From: Escherichia coli
GTDB lineage: Bacteria; Pseudomonadota; Gammaproteobacteria; Enterobacterales; Enterobacteriaceae
Reading direction: 5' to 3' (one strand)
DNA length: 64,000 bases
Assembly: GCF_044324875.1 (NCBI RefSeq)
Contig: NZ_CP172185.1
The notes beneath the pieces are model-generated. The model worked only from the letters and a program-made list of their open reading frames with translations, was not told where the DNA came from and made no database searches. Shown one piece after another: positions 2,753 to 39,072 of the stretch (its first letter is position 1; the number at the start of each line of letters is the position of its first letter). Both the position numbers and the translations under genes were made by a program.

Positions 2753-5310
2753 CGTCCACCTCCGGAGAACAGACCACCATCGCGCATCTGTGCCTGAATT
2801 TCATCACGGGCACCCTTGCGGGCCATGTCATACACAGCCTTCAGCGCCTGTGGTCCAATCTGCCCGTTCGTGCCGTCGTTGTTAATCACCACATGGTTAT
2901 TCTGCTCAAACGTCCCGGACGCCTGCGACCGGCTGTCTGCCATGCTGCCCGGTGTACCGACATAACCACCAGTGGCATAGCCGCGCATCAGCCGGTAGAG
3001 ATTCCCCACGCCAATCCGGCTGGTTGCCTCCTTCGTGAAGACAAACTCACCACGGTGAACAATCCCCGCTGGCTCATATTTGCCGCCGGTTCCTGTGAAT
3101 CCTCCGGTTGAAAAATGGAATTTCGCCGCAGCGGCCTGAATGGCTGTACCGCCTGACACTGATGCGCCACCACCGGCAGCACCGCCAATGGCGCTGCCGA
3201 TACTCCCGACAATCCCCACCATTGCCTGCTTAAGCAGAATTTCTGTCATCATGGACAGCACGGAACGGGTGAAGCTGCGCCAGTTCTGCTCACTGCCGGT
3301 CAGCATCGCCGCCATATTCTGTGCAATTCCATCAAAGGTCTGCGTGGCTGCACTTTTTACCTGCGACATACTGTCCGTGGCGCTCTCTTCCCACTCACTC
3401 CAGCCGGACCTGAGGCCAGCCATCCAGCTCCCGCGAAGCAGGTCTTCAGCCGCCCAGGTCTTTTTCTGCTCTGACATGACGTTATTCAGCGCCAGCGGAT
3501 TATCGCCATACTGTTCCTTCAGGCGCTGTTCCGTGGCTTCCCGCGCTGCCTGCCGGTCAGTCAGCCCCCGGCTTTTCGCATCAATGGCGGCCCGTTTTGC
3601 CCGTTGCTGCTGTGCGAATTTCTCCGCCTGCTGTACCAGTTCGTTCAGCCGTTTCTGGTGTTCAATCTTATCGCCAAGTTCCGCCAGCTGGCGTTTGTAC
3701 TCCAGCGTCTCATCTTTATGCGCCAGCAGGGATTTCTCCTGTGCAGACAGCTGGCGACGTTGCGCCGCCTCCTCCAGTACCGCGAACTGACTCTCCGCCT
3801 TCCACAAATCCCGGCGCTGCTGGCTGATTTTCTCATTCGCTCCGGCATGCTTCTCCAGCATCCGGAGTTCTGCCTGAAGCGTCAGCAGGGCCGCATGAGC
3901 ACTGTCTTCCTGACGATCTCCCGCAGACACCTTCACGCCGGACTGTTTCGGCTTTTTCAGCGTCGCTTCATAATCCTTTTTCGCCGCCGCCATCAGCGTG
4001 TTGTAATCTGCCTGCAGGATTTTCCCGTCTTTCAGTGCCTTGTTCAGTTCTTCCTGACGGGCGGTATATTTCTCCAGCGGTGTCTGCAGCCGTTCGTAAG
4101 CCTTCTGCGCCTCTTCGGTATATTTCAGCCGTGACGCTTCGGTATCGCTCTGCTGCTGCGCATTTTTGTCCTGTTGACTCAGCTGCTCAGCCTTCTTTCG
4201 GGCGGCTTCAAGCGCAAGACGGGCCTTTTCACGATCATCCCAGTAACGCGCCCGCGCTTCATCGTTAACAAAATAATCATCCTTGCGCAGATTCCAGATG
4301 TCGTCCGCTTTCTTAAACGCAGCCTCTGCCTTAATCAGTATCTCCTGCGCGGTATCAGGACGACCAATATCCAGCACCGAATCCCACATGGATTTGAATG
4401 CCCGCGCTGTCCTGTCTGCCCAGGTCTCCAGCGTGCCCATGTTCTCTTTCAGGCGGCGGGTCTGGTCATCAAACCCTTTCGTCGCGGCCTCGTTCGCCGC
4501 CTGCAATGCCCCGGCTTCATCGCCGGAACGCTGCAACTGAGCAACATACGCAATCTGCTCCGCCGTCACGTTATGGAACTGGCGTGCCATCGCTGTCAGC
4601 CCTGACGTCGGGTCTGTGGTCAGCTTCCCGAAGGCTTCAGCGACCTTGTCCACCTCCACGCCGGATGCAGAGGAGAAACGCGCCACACTCTGGCTGATGG
4701 ATGCAATCTGAGCCTCACCGCTTACTCCCGCCTTAACCAGTGCGCTGAGTGACTCGCTGGTCTGGTTAAACGTCAGCCCTGCCGCCTGCCCGGCTCTGGA
4801 CAGGACCAGCATGCGATCTGCCGTCAGACCCGACTGATTGCCGGAAAGGACCAGCGTTTTGTTGAAATCGGACAGGGTTGAGTTGCCCTGATACCAGGCA
4901 TACGCCAGCGCACCGGTCGCCACCGCCAGCGAGGTGGCCCCGACCATCGGCAGGGTGATCGCACCGGCAAGCCCCCTGAACATGGGGATCATCCCGCCGA
5001 AGGAGTCCTTAACCTGCCCCCCCTGTTGCAGCAGGATCAGCCACGGACTTTGCCCGCCTGCAAGCTGCGTGGCCACGTCGGTGAACTGTGCAGGAAGCAT
5101 ACGCATGGCGGCTTTATACTGTCCGACGGAAATCCCCGCTTTCTGTGCAGCCAGCGCCTGCCGGTTCATTGACTGTTCAACGACTGCCGCTGTTTTTTTC
5201 GCATCACTTTCCGTACCGGAAAAATGACGCCTGACTCTGGCCATCTGCTCGTCAAATCTGGCCGCATCCAGACTCAAATCAACGACCAGATCGCCTACCG
5301 GTTCAGCCAT
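2749..5310 (-). CDS. H: Tail tape measure protein H
   Basis: ORF track, 853 aa (same length as lambda gpH), coiled-coil rich, sits between G/T and M. Confidence 0.9.
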   Translation of the reverse strand: MAEPVGDLVVDLSLDAARFDEQMARVRRHFSGTESDAKKTAAVVEQSMNRQALAAQKAGISVGQYKAAMRMLPAQFTDVATQLAGGQSPWLILLQQGGQVKDSFGGMIPMFRGLAGAITLPMVGATSLAVATGALAYAWYQGNSTLSDFNKTLVLSGNQSGLTADRMLVLSRAGQAAGLTFNQTSESLSALVKAGVSGEAQIASISQSVARFSSASGVEVDKVAEAFGKLTTDPTSGLTAMARQFHNVTAEQIAYVAQLQRSGDEAGALQAANEAATKGFDDQTRRLKENMGTLETWADRTARAFKSMWDSVLDIGRPDTAQEILIKAEAAFKKADDIWNLRKDDYFVNDEARARYWDDREKARLALEAARKKAEQLSQQDKNAQQQSDTEASRLKYTEEAQKAYERLQTPLEKYTARQEELNKALKDGKILQADYNTLMAAAKKDYEATLKKPKQSGVKVSAGDRQEDSAHAALLTLQAELRMLEKHAGANEKISQQRRDLWKAESQFAVLEEAAQRRQLSAQEKSLLAHKDETLEYKRQLAELGDKIEHQKRLNELVQQAEKFAQQQRAKRAAIDAKSRGLTDRQAAREATEQRLKEQYGDNPLALNNVMSEQKKTWAAEDLLRGSWMAGLRSGWSEWEESATDSMSQVKSAATQTFDGIAQNMAAMLTGSEQNWRSFTRSVLSMMTEILLKQAMVGIVGSIGSAIGGAAGGGASVSGGTAIQAAAAKFHFSTGGFTGTGGKYEPAGIVHRGEFVFTKEATSRIGVGNLYRLMRGYATGGYVGTPGSMADSRSQASGTFEQNNHVVINNDGTNGQIGPQALKAVYDMARKGARDEIQAQMRDGGLFSGGGR

Positions 5311-5743
5311 ACCGGACTCCTCCTGCGATCCCTTCTGATACTGTCATCAGCATTACGTCATCCTCCGTCATGTCCGCCACATCCGGGGAAGCGGGGATAA
5401 CTTCATTCCCGTCCGGGCCAAAGCGGACACCTCCGGCAAGCCCTGCCGCTTTCTGCATCAGCACATCATCTTCAGGCTCTTCGTCAGCCTCGCGCCGGTT
5501 CAGCAAACTGAAATCCAGCGGATGCATATCCGGATCGCTGAAAAACAGGCTGAGCACGGTGTACGTCAGCCCGGAAAAATGCATATCCAGCAGAACATCA
5601 TGAAAATAATGGGTACTGTAAAAGCGGTGCCAGTCGGCATACTCCGTGGATGACATCCCGGCAAGCATGGCGCGCCAGTCGGGTCGCCCCATCTCGCGCG
5701 CCAGTTTCAGGGCAAAACTCAGCTCACCGTCGAACACTTTCCC
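5303..5743 (-). CDS. T: T segment of tail assembly chaperone G-T fusion (reached by -1 frameshift from G; no independent ATG)
   Basis: ORF 5303..5737 begins VFDGELSF... directly after the slippery heptamer in the -1 frame relative to G. Confidence 0.8.
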   Translation of the reverse strand, partial: GKVFDGELSFALKLAREMGRPDWRAMLAGMSSTEYADWHRFYSTHYFHDVLLDMHFSGLTYTVLSLFFSDPDMHPLDFSLLNRREADEEPEDDVLMQKAAGLAGGVRFGPDGNEVIPASPDVADMTEDDVMLMTVSEGIAGGVRYG

Positions 5744-29723: not shown

Positions 29724-30726
29724 CGCGCCAATCTGTGCAATCCAGAGCTTCGAAGGTGCGGCCCCGTTCTTCCGGGTCCAGCGGTCCGAATAAACCTCCC
29801 CCATGAGTTCCCACAGCTTCCAGGCTGTTTCCGTCGCTGATAAATCCGTTTTCACGTTCCCACTGCTCACGTGCTGCCCGAATTTCCTGAACTGCCCGTG
29901 ATGCGGTGCCACCTGGTGCTGCTGCATGGTTCACCCCCTTGCTGACTGGTTTAACCTGCGCCCTGACGTGATTTACGTGACGGGCGAATTTCTGCTCCCA
30001 CTGAACCTGTGTGAACACTTTCCCCTCCGCCATCCAGTAATCCCGGAAGGCGGCAAGTTCAGCAGGTGTAAATTCCGGTTCCGGCAAAGCCGCTCCCCAC
30101 AACGCAGCCCGCCGTCGAAAATCCAGCGACGGATGCCAGCCATCGGCCATCGGAAATTTCCCGATGGGTTCACTCATGCCGTCCAGATATCCGGGCTCCG
30201 TTGCCTGCGATGGCGTACCGTTCGACTCACTGGTCGGAGCACTCTCGCGCACGCGCGCGTTATGTGTGGGGTTTAATTCTTTATCTGTATCTTTATTAGT
30301 TGCCTTTGTGTTTGCGTCATGTTCAAACACCACACCAATATTTGTTTGAACACCTGTTAAATCTCTCTCTTGTTTTGTTTGAACATCTGCTTCCTTTCTG
30401 CTTCTTCTGGCCTGAACAGATGCTTTTCCGGCGGCTGATTTTTTGGTTAATTTTTCCCTGACTGATGCCAGATCTTCCTCAATCCGAAGATGCACCCATT
30501 CATCGCCGTTATCGTGAAAAAACTCCCGCAAGGATGGCTCCACATCAGCCCATCGCTCATTAGTCAGACGGGCAATTTTTGCCAGCCTGTTTTTAGGTAT
30601 TGGCTTTCCTGTTTGCCAGTAATTGAACATCAGCAACAAATATGCACCGTGCTCCTCTGCTGATAAATGCATGGTGTCAGCCAGGTAATCAGCGATGTAC
30701 AGTTGCATGTATGGTAATGCGGCCAT
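29716..30726 (-). CDS. Replication initiator/replisome organiser-like protein (DUF1376/YdaU-like N-terminus, DnaT-like C-terminal region)
   Basis: ORF track, 336 aa; N-terminal YMQLYIADYLADTMHLSAEEHGAYLLLMFNYW; position between the YdaT-like and P-like genes. Confidence 0.6.
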   Translation of the reverse strand: MAALPYMQLYIADYLADTMHLSAEEHGAYLLLMFNYWQTGKPIPKNRLAKIARLTNERWADVEPSLREFFHDNGDEWVHLRIEEDLASVREKLTKKSAAGKASVQARRSRKEADVQTKQERDLTGVQTNIGVVFEHDANTKATNKDTDKELNPTHNARVRESAPTSESNGTPSQATEPGYLDGMSEPIGKFPMADGWHPSLDFRRRAALWGAALPEPEFTPAELAAFRDYWMAEGKVFTQVQWEQKFARHVNHVRAQVKPVSKGVNHAAAPGGTASRAVQEIRAAREQWERENGFISDGNSLEAVGTHGGGLFGPLDPEERGRTFEALDCTDWRDD

Positions 30727-30796: not shown

Positions 30797-31222
30797 TCAG
30801 TGCATCACCACAGCATTACCCGCCGGGCCACCACGATTCATCTGATTGAAACCGGCGATTGCCACTGCGATAAAATCATCAGCGTCTCTCACCAGCCGTT
30901 CTCGTGTCTCCAGCAGCTCCCTGAAATAGGCTGAGCTGTGGCTACGCATTCTGGCCACCAGCAAAGGCGGCATTGCCTTTTCGATCGCTGGTAGTAACGC
31001 CTGAATTTTTACAACCGCATCAGGGGTGTCTTTCTCCACCCAGCGGAAAATTTTCTGGGTATTACGGGCCAGGGCTTCGGGATGGCTGTCGTCATACAGT
31101 TCCGGGAACGTCATACCCAGCTCAAAATAAGCCCGGGTTATTTCAGCTGCCGGAACTTTTTCGCCATCAGGACGCGCCCAGGCATTCATCGCCATGCGGA
31201 TGTGTTCATGCTTGATTTTCAT
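30797..31222 (-). CDS. YdaT-family protein (CII-position regulator of Rac-like prophages)
   Basis: ORF track, 141 aa; begins MKIKHEHI and ends ...NRGGPAGNAVVMH, as I recall for E. coli Rac YdaT. Confidence 0.55.
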   Translation of the reverse strand: MKIKHEHIRMAMNAWARPDGEKVPAAEITRAYFELGMTFPELYDDSHPEALARNTQKIFRWVEKDTPDAVVKIQALLPAIEKAMPPLLVARMRSHSSAYFRELLETRERLVRDADDFIAVAIAGFNQMNRGGPAGNAVVMH

Positions 31223-31487
31223 GAATCAAGCTCCTAGTAAGTGGTTGTGTTAACGTTTTGGTATCTTCCAGCTCGGGCCAAATATTCATCCAATCAAAAG
31301 GCCTTAGTTGCTGACGTGTAACTTCACCATTACTGGCTCGCTCAATAAGGACACATAACGATGCCCCTAACATTTGACCTTTACTCAATGCCTTTCTTAG
31401 ATAACCGATGCTAGTACCACACTCACATGCAAACATACGCTGTTCATCTGACGAAAGAGAATTGAGAAATATTCTTAATTCTTCCAT
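31206..31487 (-). CDS. Cro-like HTH regulator (YdaS family)
   Basis: ORF track, 93 aa; divergent from the repressor across an operator-containing region; HTH CGTSIGYLRKALSKGQ. Confidence 0.6.
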   Translation of the reverse strand: MEELRIFLNSLSSDEQRMFACECGTSIGYLRKALSKGQMLGASLCVLIERASNGEVTRQQLRPFDWMNIWPELEDTKTLTQPLTRSLIHENQA

Positions 31488-31517
31488 AGCTACTCCTTAG
31501 TAAACACAGCAAAAGAA

Positions 31518-31593
31518 TACCCATAGGTAAACAAAAGTCAATACCCTTGGGTTGTTTACCTTGCGGTAATCGCATCTATTATTTACCTATGGA
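31518..31593. promoter_or_regulatory. Right operator region: three TACCC-N2-GGGTA-type sites between the cro-like gene and the repressor
   Basis: TACCCATAGGTA (31518..31529), TACCCTTGGGTT (31542..31553), TTACCTATGGA (31583..31593, overlapping the repressor ATG). Confidence 0.5.
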
Positions 31594-32008
31594 CAAATAT
31601 GAATTTAGACGACAACAACTCATCAAAATTCGTGATGAGAAATGCGATGGTAAAGCGGTTAACGTGGCCAGAAAGATCGGTCGCGAGCCTTCTTATGTAT
31701 CAAGAATGTTGTACCCAGAGGGGAAAAAAGGAAAAAAACGGATCGCTGATGATATGGTGGAGATTATAGAAGAGTCCTTTGGGTTACCCCGGGGATGGAT
31801 GGATGGTATCGTTTCATCATCAACGAACACAGCCTCCAATTATGAAACAAGGGTTCTAACGCCACGACAACGTATTTTTTTAGATCTCTTAGACGAACTG
31901 CCTGAAAGTGAAGCGGATAACTTATTAAAAACTCTTGAAGAGAAAAAACAGTATTACAATATGATCTACGAAGAAATCCGTAAAAAGAAAGCACAAAACG
32001 CATCATAA
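31589..32008 (+). CDS. Prophage repressor (HTH, XRE-type; no S24 peptidase domain)
   Basis: ORF 31547..32008 with internal ATG at 31589 (MDKYEFRRQQL...); HTH AVNVARKIGREPSYVSRML. Confidence 0.7.
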   Translation: MDKYEFRRQQLIKIRDEKCDGKAVNVARKIGREPSYVSRMLYPEGKKGKKRIADDMVEIIEESFGLPRGWMDGIVSSSTNTASNYETRVLTPRQRIFLDLLDELPESEADNLLKTLEEKKQYYNMIYEEIRKKKAQNAS

Positions 32009-32053
32009 CTCACCAAACAACCAGTCACCAGTTAAGATACATCAAAAAAAAAT

Positions 32054-32090
32054 TACCCATGGGTATTTACTTTTTGGATACCCATGGGTA
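32054..32090. promoter_or_regulatory. Left operator/promoter: two perfect 12-bp palindromes TACCCATGGGTA
   Basis: Palindromes at 32054..32065 and 32079..32090, 25 bp centre to centre; TTTACT-17 bp-TATACT hexamers overlap them. Confidence 0.5.
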
Positions 32091-32283
32091 TACTTTTTTT
32101 CATACCAACCCACCCCGCCCCACAGAACGCAGGGCAATACTTCGAGTTACCAGGCAGTGGTCAGGGGTTAAGTAGCCAGCCCGAGGCGTATGAACATGAC
32201 GGCAGGGTTTAACTTTAACTATGCAGCAGGTTTTTGTTCCGCTACCCCGGCGTTAAGGGGAAACAGCACTGAGAGAAATCAGT

Positions 32284-32502
32284 ATGCAGAAGCGAGAACC
32301 CGTCATCATCTCGCCAGACTATACCGATGATGAACTTTATGAGTGGATGCGCCGGAAAATTCAGGCTGCGCAGGACCTGAAGTGGGCCAATGAAGCCAGG
32401 GCTAAGGAGGCTGAAAATCTGTCAGCTCTGGAGCAGGATATCACCAGGCTGGAAAAAGCAGCGGCATTAAGCATTGCCAGAATGATTACATACCCGCGTT
32501 AA
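32284..32502 (+). CDS. Hypothetical early-left protein (72 aa)
   Basis: ORF track; first ORF after the left operator; not Arg-rich, so not N-like. Confidence 0.4.
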   Translation: MQKREPVIISPDYTDDELYEWMRRKIQAAQDLKWANEARAKEAENLSALEQDITRLEKAAALSIARMITYPR

Positions 32503-32751
32503 CAGCTAATCAACAAGGCCAGGGTTGGTAATTAATGACTTCTCCACGGGTGAGGTGGAGTGCGTGCGCCGGACACAGACTGGTTAACGTCGCCTGGAGG
32601 CACCAGGCACCGCATCAACAAAGTTCACTTCGGTGATGAAAGGTAAGAGAAAATGTTGAATGTAGCTATTGAAAACCAGTACGGGTGGAATTATAGTGCA
32701 CCTGCACCTCATAAAGCGGGTGCCGGGATTGCTACCCCGACGTTCACTAAC

Positions 32752-32785
32752 GCGCATAACCGCGCCCAGGCGGTTTTTTTATGCG
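32752..32785 (+). terminator. Candidate intrinsic terminator/regulatory hairpin in the early-left leader
   Basis: CCGC-GCCCAG-GCGG followed by TTTTTTT, nested in a 7-bp outer stem CGCATAA/TTATGCG. Confidence 0.3.
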
Positions 32786-32946
32786 TAATGCACAGCCACA
32801 TTCAGATTATGGTGGGGCGTGCAGGGCAGCCGCAAGGCTGGCCGGGTTCGTTAGTGACCGGTTGTAGCAACCCTGTACGTCTCACCACCCATGAGATTGC
32901 TACCTCCGGTGGTGAGTTAATCAAATTCACTAACGAGGCTGCCATC

Positions 32947-33501
32947 ATGGCTACTATCCCTACCCTTTCTCACCCTGACATAACCATCAAAAACGGTCGC
33001 GCTGTCACTACGTCTATTGCGATCGCAGAGTTCTTTGGCAAGCGCCATGAACGAGTGCTGGATAAAATTCGCAATCTGGACTGTTCAGCAAAATTCACTG
33101 AGCACAATTTTGTGTCGAGCAAATACACCGACTCAACCGGGCGCAAACTCCCTATGTACCAAATCACCAAAAACGGCTTCGTTTTCCTGGTGATGGGCTT
33201 CACGGGCAAAAAGGCCGCTGCATTCAAGGAAGCCTACATTGCCGAGTTCGACCGCATGGAGGAAGAACTGCGCCGGAATAACACCACACCCGCTGACAAA
33301 ATAATCCCGGGTGATGGCCGCACCCTGGTTATCCGCTTCGACGAACACGGCTACATCAAATTCACCGAAACCGTTCCTGATGGCGCACTGGTCTGTACTC
33401 TGGATACTTTCCGTTTTTATCTGGAAAAGCAGGGATGGACTCTCATAAACCGGGGCGCAATTAAAAATATGACCGTCGAGCAGTTGCTGAGTATTAAATA
33501 G
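32947..33501 (+). CDS. rha: Rha-family phage regulatory protein
   Basis: ORF 32653..33501, start at internal ATG (MATIPTLSHPDITIKNGRAVTTSIAIAEFFGKRHERVLDKIRNL...); motif TKNGFVFLVMGFTGKKAAAFKEAYIAEFDRME. Confidence 0.65.
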   Translation: MATIPTLSHPDITIKNGRAVTTSIAIAEFFGKRHERVLDKIRNLDCSAKFTEHNFVSSKYTDSTGRKLPMYQITKNGFVFLVMGFTGKKAAAFKEAYIAEFDRMEEELRRNNTTPADKIIPGDGRTLVIRFDEHGYIKFTETVPDGALVCTLDTFRFYLEKQGWTLINRGAIKNMTVEQLLSIK

Positions 33502-33546: not shown

Positions 33547-33768
33547 ATGATTGCTCATCACTTCGGAACCGATGAAATACCACGCCAGTGCGTCACTCCC
33601 GGCGATTACGTTATTTACGAAGGCCGGACATATATCGCCTCGGCAAACAATATCGAAAAGCAAAAACTTTATATCCGTGATTTCACTACAAAAACATGCA
33701 TTACTGACCGCATGATTAAAGTCTTCCTCGGTCGTGATGGTTTACCTGTAAAGGCGGTGGCATGGTGA
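33547..33768 (+). CDS. Hypothetical protein (73 aa)
   Basis: ORF track only. Confidence 0.35.
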
Positions 33769-33887: not shown

Positions 33888-35936
33888 ATGAGCACTGATA
33901 AAGAAACTTTTGCGCTATATTGCGAAGCTAAAAATGACAAAGTCAGAAAACGCCTTGGGATTAAAGGTGGTTTTTACTGGACTACAGCAAAAAAATTATC
34001 TGTTGCCATCTCCCGCTGCATTACCGCAATGGATGATAACGATTATGATGAAGACGACTTTAAAAAACCTGTTCGCGTCCATTTGCCCGTTGTTGATGAC
34101 CTTCCACCGGAAGGCGTGTTTGATACCGAATTCTGTAACCGGTATGAAAAAGGCGGCGAAGATGGCATCACAATGATATTTATCGCGCCTCCGCCATCCG
34201 CGCAGGACAAACCAGCCAGCACTGACAACACCAATGTTAATGGCGAAGACATGACTGAGATTGAGGAGAATATGCTTCTGCCGGTTTCAGGTCAGATTCT
34301 GCCTGTTCGCTGGCTGGCGCAACACGGCGGCGAAAAACCAGTAACGCACGTTTCGCGGGATGAACTGCGCTCATTACATAACGCACAGGAAGAAAAACTT
34401 CCCGCCGTTACCGCGCTGGCCATCTCAAATAAAGCAGCGCAACTCGAACCGCTGGAGATTCGGGATTTGTACAAACTGGTGCGGGACACTGACAAAGTTT
34501 TTCCCGCTCCCGTAAATTCAGACCTGGGACTGATGACCTCCTTCATCGAAGCATACCTGGACGCTGACTACACTGATCGTGGTCTGCTTACAAAAGAGTG
34601 GATGAAAGGAAATCGTGTTTCTCGCATCAGTCGCACACCATCCGGCGCTAACGCTGGCGGCGGTATTCTTACCGATCGCGGCGAAGGTTTTGTGCATGAT
34701 AATGCGTCAATGGCATTCGATGTTGCTACAGGAAAACTGGCTCGTTCGATGGATGTGGATATTTACAGCATGCATCCTTCACATACCAGACGTGTTAACG
34801 AAATTATCGCAGAAAATGATCCCTGTTTCTCCGTCTTCCTTAAGGCTTTTCTGAACATGCCAGGCGGGATGGATTATTCCCGCGCCATCGTGGTTGCCTC
34901 CGTGAAAGAAGCACCGGTTGGTATAGAGGCTATGCCCCACCGCGTCACCGAATACCTGAATAAAGTGCTGACCGAAACCGATCATGCCAACCCTGATCCG
35001 GAAATCGTGGATATTGCCTGCGGTCGTTCCTCTGCACCAATGCCGCAGCGTGTAACAGAAGAAGGAAAACAGGATGATGAAAAAAAACCGCAACCGTCTG
35101 GCGCAATGGCAGATGAACAGGCAACTACTAAAACAGTGGAACCGGATACAACTGAACATCATCCGGACACGCAGACGCTGGATGCTCGGCCGCAGGTGAA
35201 TTCTGTTGATGCGAAATATCAGAAACTGCGGGCAGAACTCCATGAAGCCCGGAAAAACATTCCGCCCCAAAATCCTGTCGACGAAGACAAATTGCTGGCA
35301 ACCTCTCGCGGAGAATTTGCTGAAGGGATTAGCGACCAGAATGATCCGAAATGGGTGAAGGGGATTGAAACCCGCGATTCTGTGAACCAGAATCAGCAAG
35401 AAACGGAACAGAACGACCAGAAAGCGGAACAAAACAGCCCAAATGTGCAACGAAAAGAGCCAAAAGCGAAACAATCCGAACCAGTAGCGCAACAGGAACC
35501 GGAAAAAGTCTGCACCGTCTGCGGTCAGAGCGGTGTCGACAACTGTCCTGATTGTGGCGTGGTGATGGGCGACGCAACATACCAGGAAATGTTCGATGAA
35601 GAGAATCAGCCTGAAGTTCAGGAAAATGATCCAGAGGAAATGGAAGGCTCTGCGCATCAGAACAAGGAGAACTCTGGCGGCAATCAGCATCATGCCAGCG
35701 ATAGTGAAACTGGCGAGACGGCAAATCCCTTAATTAAGATAACCAGTCATCACAAATATAAGTCCACAAGCAAAACGTGGTATCACCTGATGATCGACCT
35801 TGAAACAATGGGAACCAACACCAATGCACCCATAGTAGTTATTGGTGCGGTTTTCTTCGACCCGGAAACAGGGGAAATCGGGCCGGTATTTTATATCGTT
35901 ATCAGCCTGACTGACGCAATGAATACAGGGGCTGTT
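33888..35936 (+). pseudogene. RecE/exonuclease VIII-like protein, N-terminal 683 codons; gene interrupted by IS629-like element
   Basis: ORF ends ...[14 protein letters not shown]...DAMNTGAV and takes its stop codon TGA from the first three bases of the IS; the reading frame resumes in phase after the IS. Confidence 0.7.
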
Positions 35937-35990
35937 TGAACCGCCCCGGGAATCCTGGAGACTAAACTCCCTGAGAAAGAGGTAAACAGA

Positions 35991-36317
35991 ATGACTAAAA
36001 ATACTCGTTTTTCCCCCGAAGTCCGTCAGAGGGCGATTCGTATGGTTCTGGAAAGTCAGGGCGAATATGACTCACAGTGGGCGGCAATTTGTTCCATTGC
36101 CCCAAAGATTGGCTGTACACCGGAGACTCTGCGTGTCTGGGTACGCCAGCATGAGCGGGATACCGGAGGCGGTGATGGCGGGCTCACCACCGCTGAACGT
36201 CAGCGTCTGAAAGAGCTGGAACGTGAAAATCGTGAACTGCGCCGCAGTAACGATATCCTTCGCCAGGCTTCCGCTTATTTTGCGAAGGCGGAGTTCGACC
36301 GCCTCTGGAAAAAGTGA
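35991..36317 (+). CDS. IS3-family transposase OrfA
   Basis: ORF track, 108 aa; HTH and leucine zipper. Confidence 0.9.
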
Positions 36318-37204
36318 TGCCACTGCTGGATAAGCTGCGTAAGCTGTACGGGGTCGGACCGGTATGCAGTGAACTACATATTGCCCCGTCAACGTATTAC
36401 CACTGTCAGCAACAGCGACATCATCCGGATAAACGCAGTGCCCGTGCGCAGCGCGATGACTGGCTGAAGAAAGAGATACTGCGCGTATACGATGGGAATC
36501 ATCAGGTATACGGTGTGCGTAAAGTCTGGCGTCAGTTGTTACGGGAAGGAATCAGGGTAGCCAGATGTACAGTGGCGCGCCTCATGGCGGTTATGGGACT
36601 TGCCGGTGTTCTCCGGGGTAAAAAGGTCCGCACTACCGTCAGCCGGAAAGCCGTTGCCGCAGGCGACCGCGTAAACCGTCAGTTTGTGGCAGAACGTCCT
36701 GACCAGTTGTGGGTGGCTGATTTTACTTACGTCAGCACATGGCAGGGGGTCGTCTATGTGGCGTTCATCATTGATGTGTTTGCCGGATACATCGTGGGGT
36801 GGCGGGTCTCATCGTCTATGGAAACGACATTCGTGCTGGATGCTCTGGAGCAGGCGTTATGGGCCCGTCGACCGTCCGGCACAGTCCATCACAGTGATAA
36901 AGGTTCTCAGTATGTATCGCTGGCCTACACACAGCGGCTTAAGGAAGCCGGATTACTGGCATCAACAGGAAGTACTGGTGACTCGTATGACAACGCGATG
37001 GCGGAGAGCATCAATGGCCTTTACAAAGCGGAGGTAATACACCGTAAGAGCTGGAAAAACCGGACAGAAGTGGAGCTGGCCACACTCACGTGGGTGGACT
37101 GGTATAACAATCGACGATTGCTGGAAAGGCTGGGCCATATCCCACCGGCAGAAGCAGAAAAAGCTTATTATGCTTCCATCGGAAACGATGATCTGGCAGC
37201 CTGA
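36314..37204 (+). CDS. IS3-family transposase OrfB (DDE catalytic region; normally expressed as OrfAB by -1 frameshift)
   Basis: ORF track, 296 aa; overlaps orfA by 4 nt. Confidence 0.9.
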
Positions 37205-37706: not shown

Positions 37707-37985
37707 GTGATAGCCATGAGCGAACAGTACCTGATAACGCTCGATGAGTGGAAACCAAAACGGTTCAGTCTCCCAATAACAAACACTACCCTGGTGAAAT
37801 ATGGAAAACTAGGATACATCGTTCCAAGACCACAAAAAATTCGTGGGCGTTGGCTGATAGATCGCCGGGCAGTATTTGTTGGGCCAGGTGAAACAGGAAT
37901 TGCGCCGGAAATTCATACTGGCGATGATGATGCACTGAAGGAGATTTTAACTCATGTCACCGAGGCCACGAAAAAACAGCACTGA
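37707..37985 (+). CDS. xis: Excisionase (Xis-like)
   Basis: ORF track, 92 aa; YLITLDEW...VKYGKLGYIVPRPQKIRGRWLIDRRAV resembles lambda Xis; 3' end overlaps the int start. Confidence 0.6.
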   Translation: MIAMSEQYLITLDEWKPKRFSLPITNTTLVKYGKLGYIVPRPQKIRGRWLIDRRAVFVGPGETGIAPEIHTGDDDALKEILTHVTEATKKQH

Positions 37986-39072
37986 CGTAGCCGGTCTTTA
38001 CGAAAAGTTTGATCGCAGAACTGGCAGGGTTTACTACCAGTATAAAAACCCTGTGACTGGAAAATTTCACGGTCTCGGAACAGACAAATGTAAGGCAGAA
38101 AAAATCGCTTCCACAGCCAATCAGCGAATAGCTGCAGCAGAAGCTGAATATTACATGCGCAAAATTGATGAAAGTCCGTCAGCAACAAAACGTCGGGGTA
38201 TCAGATTAAAGGCATGGGTTGAACGATATCTGAAAATACAGGACACACGACTAAAAAATGGAGATATTGCAGCTACAACCCACAAAGAAAAAGCCCGAAT
38301 GGCTGCATACCTGGTTTCCCGTCTGGGAAACCACCCATTGAAAGAACTGGAAGTAAGAGACTTTGCATTGATACTGGATGAGTGGCTGGATAAAGACATG
38401 GTCAGCACGGCGAGAGTAAACCGTGGATTATGGGTTGATATTTATAAAGAAGCACAGCATGCAGGGGAAGTTCCTCCCGGATGGAATCCTCCGGAGGCTA
38501 CCCGTAAACCGATCCCTAAAGTAAGCAGAGCCAGACTCACCCTGGAAGACTGGCAAAAAATTTACAATGCAACGCCTGAAAGGCACTTTATTCGTAACGC
38601 AATGCTTCTTGCAATTGTTACTGGTCAGCGCCGTGATGACATTTGCCACATGCGTTTTTCAGATGTGTGGAACGAACACTTGCATATCACCCAGGGAAAA
38701 ACCGGAATGCGTCTGGCGTTACCGCTTACACTCCGCTGTGATGCCATTGGGATAACGTTAAAAGAAGTTATTGATGGATGCCGAGACAGAATATTAAGTC
38801 CATACCTAATCCATAGTCGGCACCAGAAACAACCAAAACCGATGAGTAAAGACAACCTGAGCGACTACTTTGCCAAAGCACGGGATCTGGCTGGGATAAT
38901 TCCACCAGCAGGAAAAACTCCTCCCACATTTCATGAACAACGCTCTCTATCAGAACGGCTGTACCGTACGCAGGGTATCGATACAAAAACATTACTGGGA
39001 CATAAAATCCAGGCAACCACCGATCGCTATAACGATACCCGAGGTCAGGAATGGGTTAAGTTGGTTATTTGA
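37954..39072 (+). CDS. int: Tyrosine integrase (lambda Int family)
   Basis: ORF track, 372 aa; C-terminal LLGHKIQATTDRYNDTRG with catalytic Tyr; terminal position next to host DNA. Confidence 0.9.
   Translation: MSPRPRKNSTDVAGLYEKFDRRTGRVYYQYKNPVTGKFHGLGTDKCKAEKIASTANQRIAAAEAEYYMRKIDESPSATKRRGIRLKAWVERYLKIQDTRLKNGDIAATTHKEKARMAAYLVSRLGNHPLKELEVRDFALILDEWLDKDMVSTARVNRGLWVDIYKEAQHAGEVPPGWNPPEATRKPIPKVSRARLTLEDWQKIYNATPERHFIRNAMLLAIVTGQRRDDICHMRFSDVWNEHLHITQGKTGMRLALPLTLRCDAIGITLKEVIDGCRDRILSPYLIHSRHQKQPKPMSKDNLSDYFAKARDLAGIIPPAGKTPPTFHEQRSLSERLYRTQGIDTKTLLGHKIQATTDRYNDTRGQEWVKLVI

Follow-up and report, generated by a model that had tools for sequence, protein, structure and literature searches.

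The 64,000-nucleotide stretch of Escherichia coli DNA considered here (contig NZ_CP172185.1 of assembly GCF_044324875.1), referred to below as the window, contains a lambda-type prophage whose early region houses a compact regulatory module centered on the gene for a 139-amino-acid (aa) repressor (31589-32008, + strand), which has a helix-turn-helix (HTH) domain and no S24 domain. On the opposite strand lies a 93-aa cro-like gene of the YdaS family (31206-31487), recognized by its match to Pfam YdaS_toxin, followed by a 141-aa YdaT-family gene, the presumed cII equivalent (30797-31222; Pfam YdaT_toxin), and by a DUF1376/DnaT-like (YdaU-like) replication gene (29716-30726), which was assigned from the open reading frame (ORF) listing and family searches and is annotated as DUF1376 in the related prophage of E. 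coli F1022. The divergent cro-like and repressor genes are separated by a 101-bp intergenic region, and a regulatory region of 275 bp lies between the repressor and a ydfC-like gene on its other side. The module is most probably the immunity (lysis-lysogeny) switch of the prophage, built from shuffled modules and relieved by an antirepressor-type induction. It is common: 812 of 5,426 complete E. coli genomes contain at least 80% of the module by length. Its repressor is annotated only as "hypothetical protein."

Two exact copies of the palindrome TACCCATGGGTA, at 32054-32065 and 32079-32090, were located by a pattern search of all 64 kb, and a consensus scan found the TTTACT-17-TATACT promoter that one of them adjoins and the other overlaps, just as an earlier reading of the DNA made from the letters alone (the sequence-only reading) had described. 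That reading had also proposed a motif scan for further copies, and at two or fewer mismatches the scan added only two matches, at 31518 (TACCCATAGGTA) and 31542 (TACCCTTGGGTT). The shared core, TACC-N4-GGTA, occurs four times in the window (31518, 31557, 32054, and 32079), against an expectation of ∼0.35 and with none of 100 shuffled sequences reaching four, and all four copies fall within 573 bp around the repressor gene. Of the three related sites originally placed between the repressor and the cro-like gene, those at 31518 and 31542 stand; the third, at 31584-31595 with three mismatches, is at chance level (22 such matches vs. ∼18 expected) and is absent outside near-identical relatives, and the conserved third site is instead TACCTTGCGGTA at 31557-31568.

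Three promoter-like sites emerged from the consensus scan, and each is closely interleaved with these dyads. The leftward PR-like promoter (TTGACT-16-TATTCT, 31541-31514, - strand) leads into the cro-like gene, and its spacer and the edge of its -10 element are covered by the OR1-like site of the right operator (OR), TACCCATAGGTA at 31518-31529, 71 bp before the repressor ATG. The OR2-like site (TACCCTTGGGTT, 31542-31553), which has a weaker right half, abuts the PR -35 element and is centered at about -41.5 from the presumed PRM start, and the OR3-like site (TACCTTGCGGTA, 31557-31568), which carries the TACC-N4-GGTA core, overlaps the -35 element of the rightward PRM-like promoter (TTTACC-16-TATTAT, 31555-31582, + strand), whose -10 element ends 6 nt before the ATG. 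Beyond the repressor gene, in the left operator (OL), the OL2-like copy of TACCCATGGGTA (32054-32065) begins 45 bp past the stop codon and sits directly upstream of the -35 element of the PL-like promoter (TTTACT-17-TATACT, 32066-32094, + strand), and the OL1-like copy (32079-32090) covers the PL spacer and the first bases of its -10 element; the positions of these hexamers relative to the operator pair are conserved across related loci. No Shine-Dalgarno sequence precedes the repressor ATG, and the repressor mRNA is probably leaderless, with a start site deduced from promoter spacing; leaderless cI and paaR2 mRNAs have been described (PMC8630535).

The operator assignment was examined in 33 loci, totaling 165 kb, that were fetched with the N-terminal 75 residues of the repressor at one genome per species. 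They include Edwardsiella, Klebsiella, Pantoea, Yersinia, Brenneria, Arsenophonus, Aeromonas, Paraburkholderia, Herbaspirillum, Neisseria, Xanthomonas, and a Pasteurellaceae metagenome-assembled genome (MAG), among others, and thus span Enterobacterales, Aeromonas, Burkholderiaceae, Neisseria, Pasteurellaceae, and Xanthomonas. Each of the 91 TACC-N4-GGTA sites in this set lies either between the repressor and cro genes or on the downstream side of the repressor. A site stands at -71 to -75 from the repressor ATG in 26 of the 33 loci and at -32 to -35 in 18; three further intergenic sites lie at -48, -58, and -98, and the remainder are downstream of the repressor, mostly as pairs spaced 24-26 bp around a -35/-10 promoter. 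The values in the window, -71, -32, and a downstream pair spaced 25 bp, agree with this pattern.

The layout between these positions is also retained. After site 1 come ∼12 bp with (g/a)tcaa at their end, the PR -35 element as seen on the other strand, so that the TTGAC element (read as "gtcaa" or "atcaa" on the + strand) is conserved across loci just to the left of site 2; site 2 is followed after 3 bp by site 3, the left half of which lies over the PRM -35 element (TTTACC), and the -10 element ends 6-7 nt before the ATG. Site 2, at -48, has a degenerate right half (GGTT or GGGA) in most loci. In the downstream pairs the -35 hexamer comes directly after the first site and the -10 element overlaps the end of the second, an arrangement found in 23 genome loci and in the lambdoid phage mEp043. 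Among near-identical E. coli relatives the changes fall in the central 4 bp, and the TACC and GGTA half-sites are fixed with one exception, a site-3 GGTA that has become AGTA in one relative (H6). The predicted recognition helix of the repressor (residues 34-40, PSYVSRM) is likewise nearly invariant in the family. Because their positions are conserved across the 33 loci, the TACC-N4-GGTA dyads can be regarded as the operators of this DNA-binding domain, and the comparative case for doing so is the strongest that sequence data can provide. The assignment is independent of which C-terminal domain a given repressor carries. A literature search with the operator strings and with mEp043 found no description of these operators.

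The repressor itself is a hybrid of two modules. An AlphaFold2 model (mean predicted local distance difference test score of 86) divides it into an HTH DNA-binding domain (residues 1-73, 31589-31807), with helices at residues 3-18, 23-30, 34-40, and 54-64, a disordered linker (residues 74-91), and a helical C-terminal domain (residues 92-138, 31862-32002) made of two helices, 92-103 and 106-138. The protein has no Pfam match even at E ≤ 10 and no S24 domain, in line with the sequence-only reading, which had called it an HTH-only repressor without a peptidase; neither a search against Protein Data Bank (PDB) sequences nor PADLOC returned anything significant. Its N-terminal domain was recognizable in structure, as Foldseek neighbors are Xre/lambda-repressor-like HTH proteins, the best being the Rep protein of Salmonella phage SPC32H (PDB 5d50, E 1e-3), followed by C-proteins, HigA, and the N-terminal domain of TP901-1 CI.

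At the level of sequence, residues 1-75 share 70-85% identity with the N-terminal parts of PF00717 (S24) proteins of 221-242 aa, which are the repressors labeled "LexA family" in Salmonella, Edwardsiella, Yersinia, Pantoea, and Klebsiella, and 65% identity with the cI of mEp043; in the alignment, the S24 part of these relatives is replaced by ∼55 helical residues. That replacement segment (residues 86-139) matches the C-terminus of DicA, both in the NCBIfam DicA model (positions 79-131, E 2.5e-5, a match below the curated full-length cut-off since the C-terminus alone is matched) and by BLASTP (33% identity, E 1e-7). The repressor is not a truncated protein: its C-terminal domain is DicA-like and conserved, and the first downstream operator follows only 45 bp past the stop codon. 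A still closer relative of the C-terminal domain (72% identity) is the CI C-terminus of the isolated phages Tritos and vB_EcoS-673R7, whose N-terminal domain is unrelated to that of this repressor.

A DNA comparison with Tritos displays the same partition. The segments unique to the window are the one running from cro through OR to the DNA-binding domain (31235-31891) and the OL-PL segment (32009-32107); the region between them, which codes for the C-terminal domain, forms an island of 77% identity, and the flanks are 88-96% identical, which on the sequence is the classic pattern of an immunity-specificity swap. A search of 1.84 billion proteins recovered the N-terminal domain in 703 cluster representatives with varied C-terminal parts. 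Among the fetched loci, those of Paraburkholderia, Neisseria, Herbaspirillum, and Burkholderiaceae (L023, L026, L027, L029, and L030) carry the same DNA-binding domain on other C-terminal parts, including short helical tails that do not resemble DicA and a form of 301 aa in which a second HTH is present. This variety of C-terminal parts on one DNA-binding domain implies that the domain has been recombined many times. One further locus in the set (L004, JAIJJM010000125.1), a 6.4-kb contig assigned to a "Collinsella sp." MAG, holds a repressor, a Cro, and operators that are essentially identical and of E. coli type; as Collinsella is an actinobacterium, the contig is very likely mis-binned E. 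coli prophage DNA. Judged by its sequence, the repressor is an uncharacterized new member of the known Gifsy/DicA class of non-cleavable lambdoid repressors.

The two leftward regulatory genes have clearer affiliations. The cro-like protein matches Pfam YdaS_toxin (PF15943, E 1.1e-5), is 73% identical to the Cro of mEp043, and aligns with the PDB "Cro" chains 8c7k and 8co2 (E 1.5e-10); homologues stand divergently beside the repressor in 25 further loci, or 26 with mEp043 (BLASTP E < 1e-10). The YdaT-like protein matches Pfam YdaT_toxin (PF06254, E 7.5e-9), PHROG 163 ("CII-like activator," E 1.8e-44), and the PDB entries 3c4r (E 5.9e-88) and 8bt1, the YdaT of CP-933P (E 3e-79). At the junction where the ydaS-like gene ends and the ydaT-like one starts lies TTGATTTTCATGAATCAA (31212-31229), the only perfect TTGATT-N6-AATCAA in the window; this inverted repeat is the footprint of CP-933P YdaT, at the same relative position (PMC9986795).

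These elements suggest how the switch could work. The repressor would bind the TACC-N4-GGTA dyads cooperatively through its N-terminal HTH and probably pair through its C-terminal helices. At the right operator, the sites at 31518 and 31542 would cover the leftward PR, the promoter of the YdaS-like cro, the YdaT-like cII equivalent, and the replication genes. If the repressor mRNA is assumed to start at the ATG, the three OR centers fall at about -65.5, -41.5, and -26.5. In lambda, OR1 and OR2 lie at the same first two values, -65.5 and -41.5, relative to PRM, and a site ∼41.5 bp upstream is where lambda CI activates that promoter. Given these lambda-like centers, repressor bound at the first two sites should keep PR off and could activate PRM; the third site, at 31557 over the PRM -35 element, could turn PRM off when repressor levels are high and would thereby permit negative autoregulation. 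At the left operator, two perfect sites bracket PL, which would drive ydfC, the isrK/C4/Rha cassette, kil, and recE, and the repressor must keep kil, a toxic gene encoding an FtsZ inhibitor (33547-33768, + strand; NCBIfam NF008465, 149.9 bits vs. a cut-off of 92), silent. The YdaS-like Cro would presumably compete with the repressor for the same sites, and YdaT would bind its own inverted repeat at 31212-31229.

The same domain make-up bears on induction. As the repressor lacks an S24 domain, no RecA-stimulated self-cleavage is expected, a point on which the sequence-only reading is upheld and which agrees with published work on comparable repressors: the antirepressor Rem relieves repression by DicA, which lacks the cleavage site (bioRxiv 10.1101/2023.04.14.536235), the ∼136-aa Gifsy repressors undergo no cleavage and lose their activity to antirepressors, some of which work in trans (PMC3121763), and PaaR2, without the peptidase motif, is unresponsive to mitomycin C (PMC8630535). 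With a DicA/Gifsy-type C-terminal domain in place of the S24 autopeptidase that most relatives sharing this DNA-binding domain carry, induction, if any, would most likely proceed through an antirepressor protein, for which the sole candidate in cis is a Rha-family, AnrP-like protein that has its own promoter and would be gated by the isrK and C4 RNA structures.

The genes and RNA elements to the right of the repressor are arranged as a ydfC-like gene, isrK-like and C4-like RNA elements, the Rha-family gene, and kil, all on the + strand, and then a recE-like exonuclease gene. A PisrK-like promoter (TTGAAA-17-TATAGT, 32669-32697) that matches 10 of 12 consensus positions ends 7 nt before the 5′ end of a full-length isrK-like small RNA (sRNA; 32704-32780; Rfam RF01394, 62.7 bits vs. 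a gathering threshold of 50), which has its own terminator (32758-32775, followed by a T-run). A full-length C4 antisense-type RNA element, the equivalent of orf45/STnc1160 (32805-32892; RF01695, 78.2 bits vs. a gathering threshold of 45), follows just upstream of the Rha start, and the 184-aa Rha-family protein (32947-33501) matches Pfam Phage_pRha (PF09669, E 8e-31), TIGR02681, and the PHROG anti-repressor families. An in-frame upstream ORF extends Rha back to 32653, yielding a 282-aa ORF (32653-33501) that RefSeq pipelines present as one "Rha family" protein; it overlaps both RNAs over their full length, the Rha domain starts only at the ATG at 32947, and the longer ORF is probably either an in-frame orf45-anrP fusion or an over-long call. 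In the Gifsy-1 isrK-orf45-anrP cassette, IsrK unlocks translation of the antirepressor-like AnrP (PMC4825925). By this analogy, the Rha gene is a plausible candidate antirepressor; the suggestion in the sequence-only reading that it might be an accessory regulator gains from the isrK-C4-AnrP-type setting and is tempered by prophages in which the same repressor has no Rha partner.

Several observations weigh against reading the module as a working, antirepressor-induced immunity switch. Binding of the repressor to its operators is a prediction from sequence, the sites at -48 and -32 may not be filled together, with just 15 bp between their centers, and the leaderless start of the repressor mRNA is predicted from promoter spacing only. 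The prophage carries two insertion sequence (IS) elements and may no longer be inducible. With regard to the antirepressor, the identical repressor (WP_000362152.1) or a close variant is found in other E. coli prophages beside ydfC-dicB operons without a Rha gene (two of the three also have ydfA/ydfB), and linkage to Rha is therefore not obligatory. The C-terminal part of Rha and Rem share a match to PHROG 340 (E 2.3e-5), but a likeness between them was not confirmed by BLASTP, Pfam PF27490, hhalign, or Foldseek: hhalign of shallow alignments returned a probability of 0.5%, and Foldseek with a low-confidence Rha model (predicted local distance difference test score of 67) found only Rha's own family. 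No credible LexA box was detected in the 64-kb window with a strict pattern and a 20-mer consensus (the best candidate had mismatches at 8 of 20 positions), and tblastn found no Rem homologue there. The ORF at the position equivalent to rem belongs to PHROG 1212, and Rem to PHROG 340.

Two alternatives concern induction rather than the identity of the operators. In the first, the switch would be run by a small antirepressor of the Gifsy/Rem type that is encoded elsewhere, in another prophage or outside the window, and is possibly LexA-controlled, leaving Rha with some other role. The DicA-type C-terminal domain of the repressor, taken with the relief of DicA by Rem cited above, fits this arrangement, as do the Gifsy antirepressors that act between prophages and sit outside the immunity region (PMC3121763) and the occurrence of the repressor without Rha; the absence of both a Rem homologue and a LexA box from the window speaks against it, as do the nin-region ORFs, none of which has an annotated antirepressor or an anti-repressor PHROG. 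This possibility deserves to be kept in view, although we consider it the less likely course. In the second, the prophage would be cryptic and the switch locked, with the repressor serving only to silence toxic genes such as kil and flipping rarely and spontaneously, as in Qin and CP-933P, with no dedicated inducer. The IS21-family and IS3-family insertions, the latter of which disrupts recE, favor this view, as does the bistable switching independent of RecA and Rem that has been reported for DicA/DicC (bioRxiv 10.1101/2023.04.14.536235) and for PaaR2/YdaS (PMC8630535). Set against it are the intact-looking structural, lysis, Q, replication, and integrase genes, the fact that lytic growth does not need recE, and the viable phages Tritos and vB_EcoS-673R7, which carry the same C-terminal domain; a locked switch is possible but the less likely course.

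The remaining alternatives question the identity of the module itself. The two perfect palindromes might be mainly an intrinsic terminator of the repressor transcript rather than sites of repressor binding, given that together they form a terminator-like hairpin (32044-32100, + strand) with a 16-pair stem, a preceding A-run, a TACTTTTTTT tail, and a following T7-run, a predicted RNA fold of -26.6 kcal/mol (z -6.1), and a position upstream of the predicted PL start, 45 bp past the stop codon, where it would affect PRM read-through only. Such a hairpin comes free, however, because any two copies of one palindrome are complementary, and the same dyad recurs in the cro-repressor intergenic region; pairs spaced 24-26 bp with a conserved -35/-10 but no T-run are found in 23 genome loci and mEp043, and the T-run is interrupted even in near-identical E. 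coli relatives. A terminator as the sole function of the pair was rejected on these comparative grounds, and as its main function it is improbable. A secondary terminator role in this particular prophage is possible, if less likely than not: the hairpin could terminate PRM read-through, at most as a local extra, given that the T-run is not conserved. At 32089-32100 the window alone combines a TATACT PL -10 element with an unbroken T7; the close relatives compared (F1022 and three others) have TATCCT and broken T-runs, and such single-base changes may tune PL strength or termination in this copy.

Very improbable is a Rac-type racR-ydaS-ydaT cassette, that is, a repressor-toxin unit as in K-12 instead of a phage switch of another immunity type: it could draw on the Pfam matches to YdaS and YdaT, the neighboring DUF1376 YdaU-like replication gene, and the RefSeq name of the ydaT-like gene ("toxin YdaT family protein"), but the repressor has no similarity to K-12 RacR (BLASTP best E 2.3), the Rac YdaS and YdaT are only distantly homologous (by BLASTP, 39% identity over 44 residues, E 9e-7, and 33% identity, E 3e-15), YdaS and YdaT are now seen as Cro and CII equivalents and not as toxins (PMC8630535, PMC9986795), and the nearest relatives of the parts are in CP-933P, mEp043, and Qin/Tritos. 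The term "Rac-like," which the sequence-only reading had applied to this regulatory core, thus holds for the YdaS and YdaT families and for the gene order shared with Rac (a repressor with divergent YdaS- and YdaT-family genes, then a DUF1376 replication gene) and fails for the repressor.

Read as an immunity switch, the module draws its parts from four described lineages, namely a DNA-binding domain, Cro, and operators of mEp043 type, a C-terminal tail and PL leader of DicA/Tritos type, a YdaT of CP-933P type, and an isrK-AnrP cassette of Gifsy-1 type. Like the repressors of the Qin DicA/DicC system and of Salmonella Gifsy prophages, the repressor is in the range of ∼135-140 aa with no S24 domain or Ala-Gly site, and is encoded next to a divergent cro and a downstream promoter for ydfC-type genes; with the Qin system it also shares a C-terminal helical domain homologous to DicA residues 79-131. 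Unlike in both, no Rem/GfoA-type antirepressor or LexA box was found in cis within the window. The mEp043 repressor and the S24-containing "LexA family" repressors of Enterobacterales resemble it in a DNA-binding domain that is 65-85% identical, in the 73% identity to mEp043 Cro, and in TACC-N4-GGTA sites at the same OR and OL positions, but they are 221-242 aa long and carry a PF00717 peptidase domain where DicA-type helices stand here, and mEp043 has a lambda-type cII and an N antiterminator.

CP-933P of E. coli O157:H7, with its PaaR2, YdaS, and YdaT, has nearly the same YdaT and the same operator at the ydaS/ydaT junction, as well as a peptidase-less repressor, a probably leaderless repressor gene, and a lambda-like PR/PRM/PL logic (PMC8630535). 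It differs in repressor and Cro specificity, with repeats of the GTTTAGTAA type (PMC8630535), and in a paaA2-parE2 toxin-antitoxin pair after the repressor that is not present in the window. The resemblance to Rac of K-12 is that of gene order discussed above, with a repressor unrelated to RacR. The Gifsy-1 isrK-orf45-anrP and P1/P7 c4-icd-ant systems share full-length isrK and C4-type RNAs, a promoter located at the 5′ end of isrK, and, directly downstream, a protein of the Rha family; unlike in Gifsy-1, the small upstream ORF here is in frame with Rha, a fusion also seen in S. dysenteriae (PMC4825925), the cassette lies inside the PL operon, and the target repressor is putative.

The SPC32H Rep-Ant pair (PDB 5d50/5d4z) provides the best structural match of the predicted N-terminal domain, with a root-mean-square deviation of 1.3 Å over 72 columns of one chain, but there is no detectable sequence similarity and the C-terminal parts differ. 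SPC32H Rep is reportedly inactivated by its antirepressor and not by cleavage. Repressors of the lambda, P22, and LexA type have in common with this one an N-terminal HTH, three OR sites between divergent promoters, and more sites at a downstream PL, and are set apart by the C-terminal S24 peptidase with its cleavage site, which is missing here.

The surroundings of the module are those of a mosaic lambda-type prophage. Tape-measure, major head, portal, and large terminase genes and a Q-like antiterminator lie to the left of the switch, and the integrase gene (37954-39072) to the right; in E. coli F1022, where the module is 99.8% identical, the prophage adjoins ompW. The ydfC-like gene that opens the PL operon (32284-32502, + strand) belongs to PHROG 1744, is called ydfC in relatives, and is 91% identical to Tritos DNA. 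Relative to Tritos and Qin, ydfA and ydfB are missing from the PL operon (32260-32627, compared with phage Tritos), and past a mosaic joint at 32627 isrK-Rha-kil takes the place of the dicF-dicB segment. The recE-like ORF (in window region 33888-37204) stops at 35939, and next to it comes an IS3-family element, with orfA from 35991 and an ALIL frameshift pseudoknot at 36272-36388, so that the recombination gene is disrupted. The IS21-family element (transposase and IstB/DnaC-like ATPase, 25999-27800, + strand) lies in the nin-like region, with the replication genes on one side and Q on the other. Two small + strand ORFs at 24654-25279 correspond, by position only, to a ParD antitoxin and a RelE/ParE toxin annotated in the F1022 prophage, and two - strand tRNA genes (20981-21131), annotated as tRNA-Arg and tRNA-Ile in the F1022 copy, lie just downstream of the Q antiterminator region. 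Two annotation slips were encountered: the YdaT-like gene of the Tritos record (4978-5403) is named "Rha family transcriptional regulator," and RefSeq names the kil product of F1022 (23228-23449) "cell division protein FtsZ."

A more far-reaching proposal, which we regard as speculative and unlikely to hold in full, is that the DNA-binding domain constitutes an unrecognized family, with no Pfam or NCBIfam model, that keeps a fixed TACC-N4-GGTA code and a lambda-like geometry of OR and OL from Xanthomonas to E. coli as its C-terminal "induction module" is repeatedly exchanged (S24 autopeptidase, DicA/Gifsy-type helices, and others), and that the DicA-type tail found here is sensed by the RNA-gated Rha/AnrP of the PL operon. 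Were the tail sensed in this way, induction would be triggered by an sRNA, independently of SOS, and reinforced by positive feedback.

The current picture of lambdoid switches is unchanged by this module, which is an ordinary product of phage module shuffling, and although the conservation of the operator layout across phyla and the clean domain swaps have their use, a specialist would find nothing surprising in them. The operator code and domain make-up allow prediction of which prophages are mutually immune, and the repressor class flags prophages without a direct response to SOS-inducing antibiotics. Repressors in which the same DNA-binding domain carries either an S24 or a DicA-type tail, or in which the same tail is carried by different DNA-binding domains, also provide natural pairs for studying how the mode of induction evolves separately from immunity specificity.

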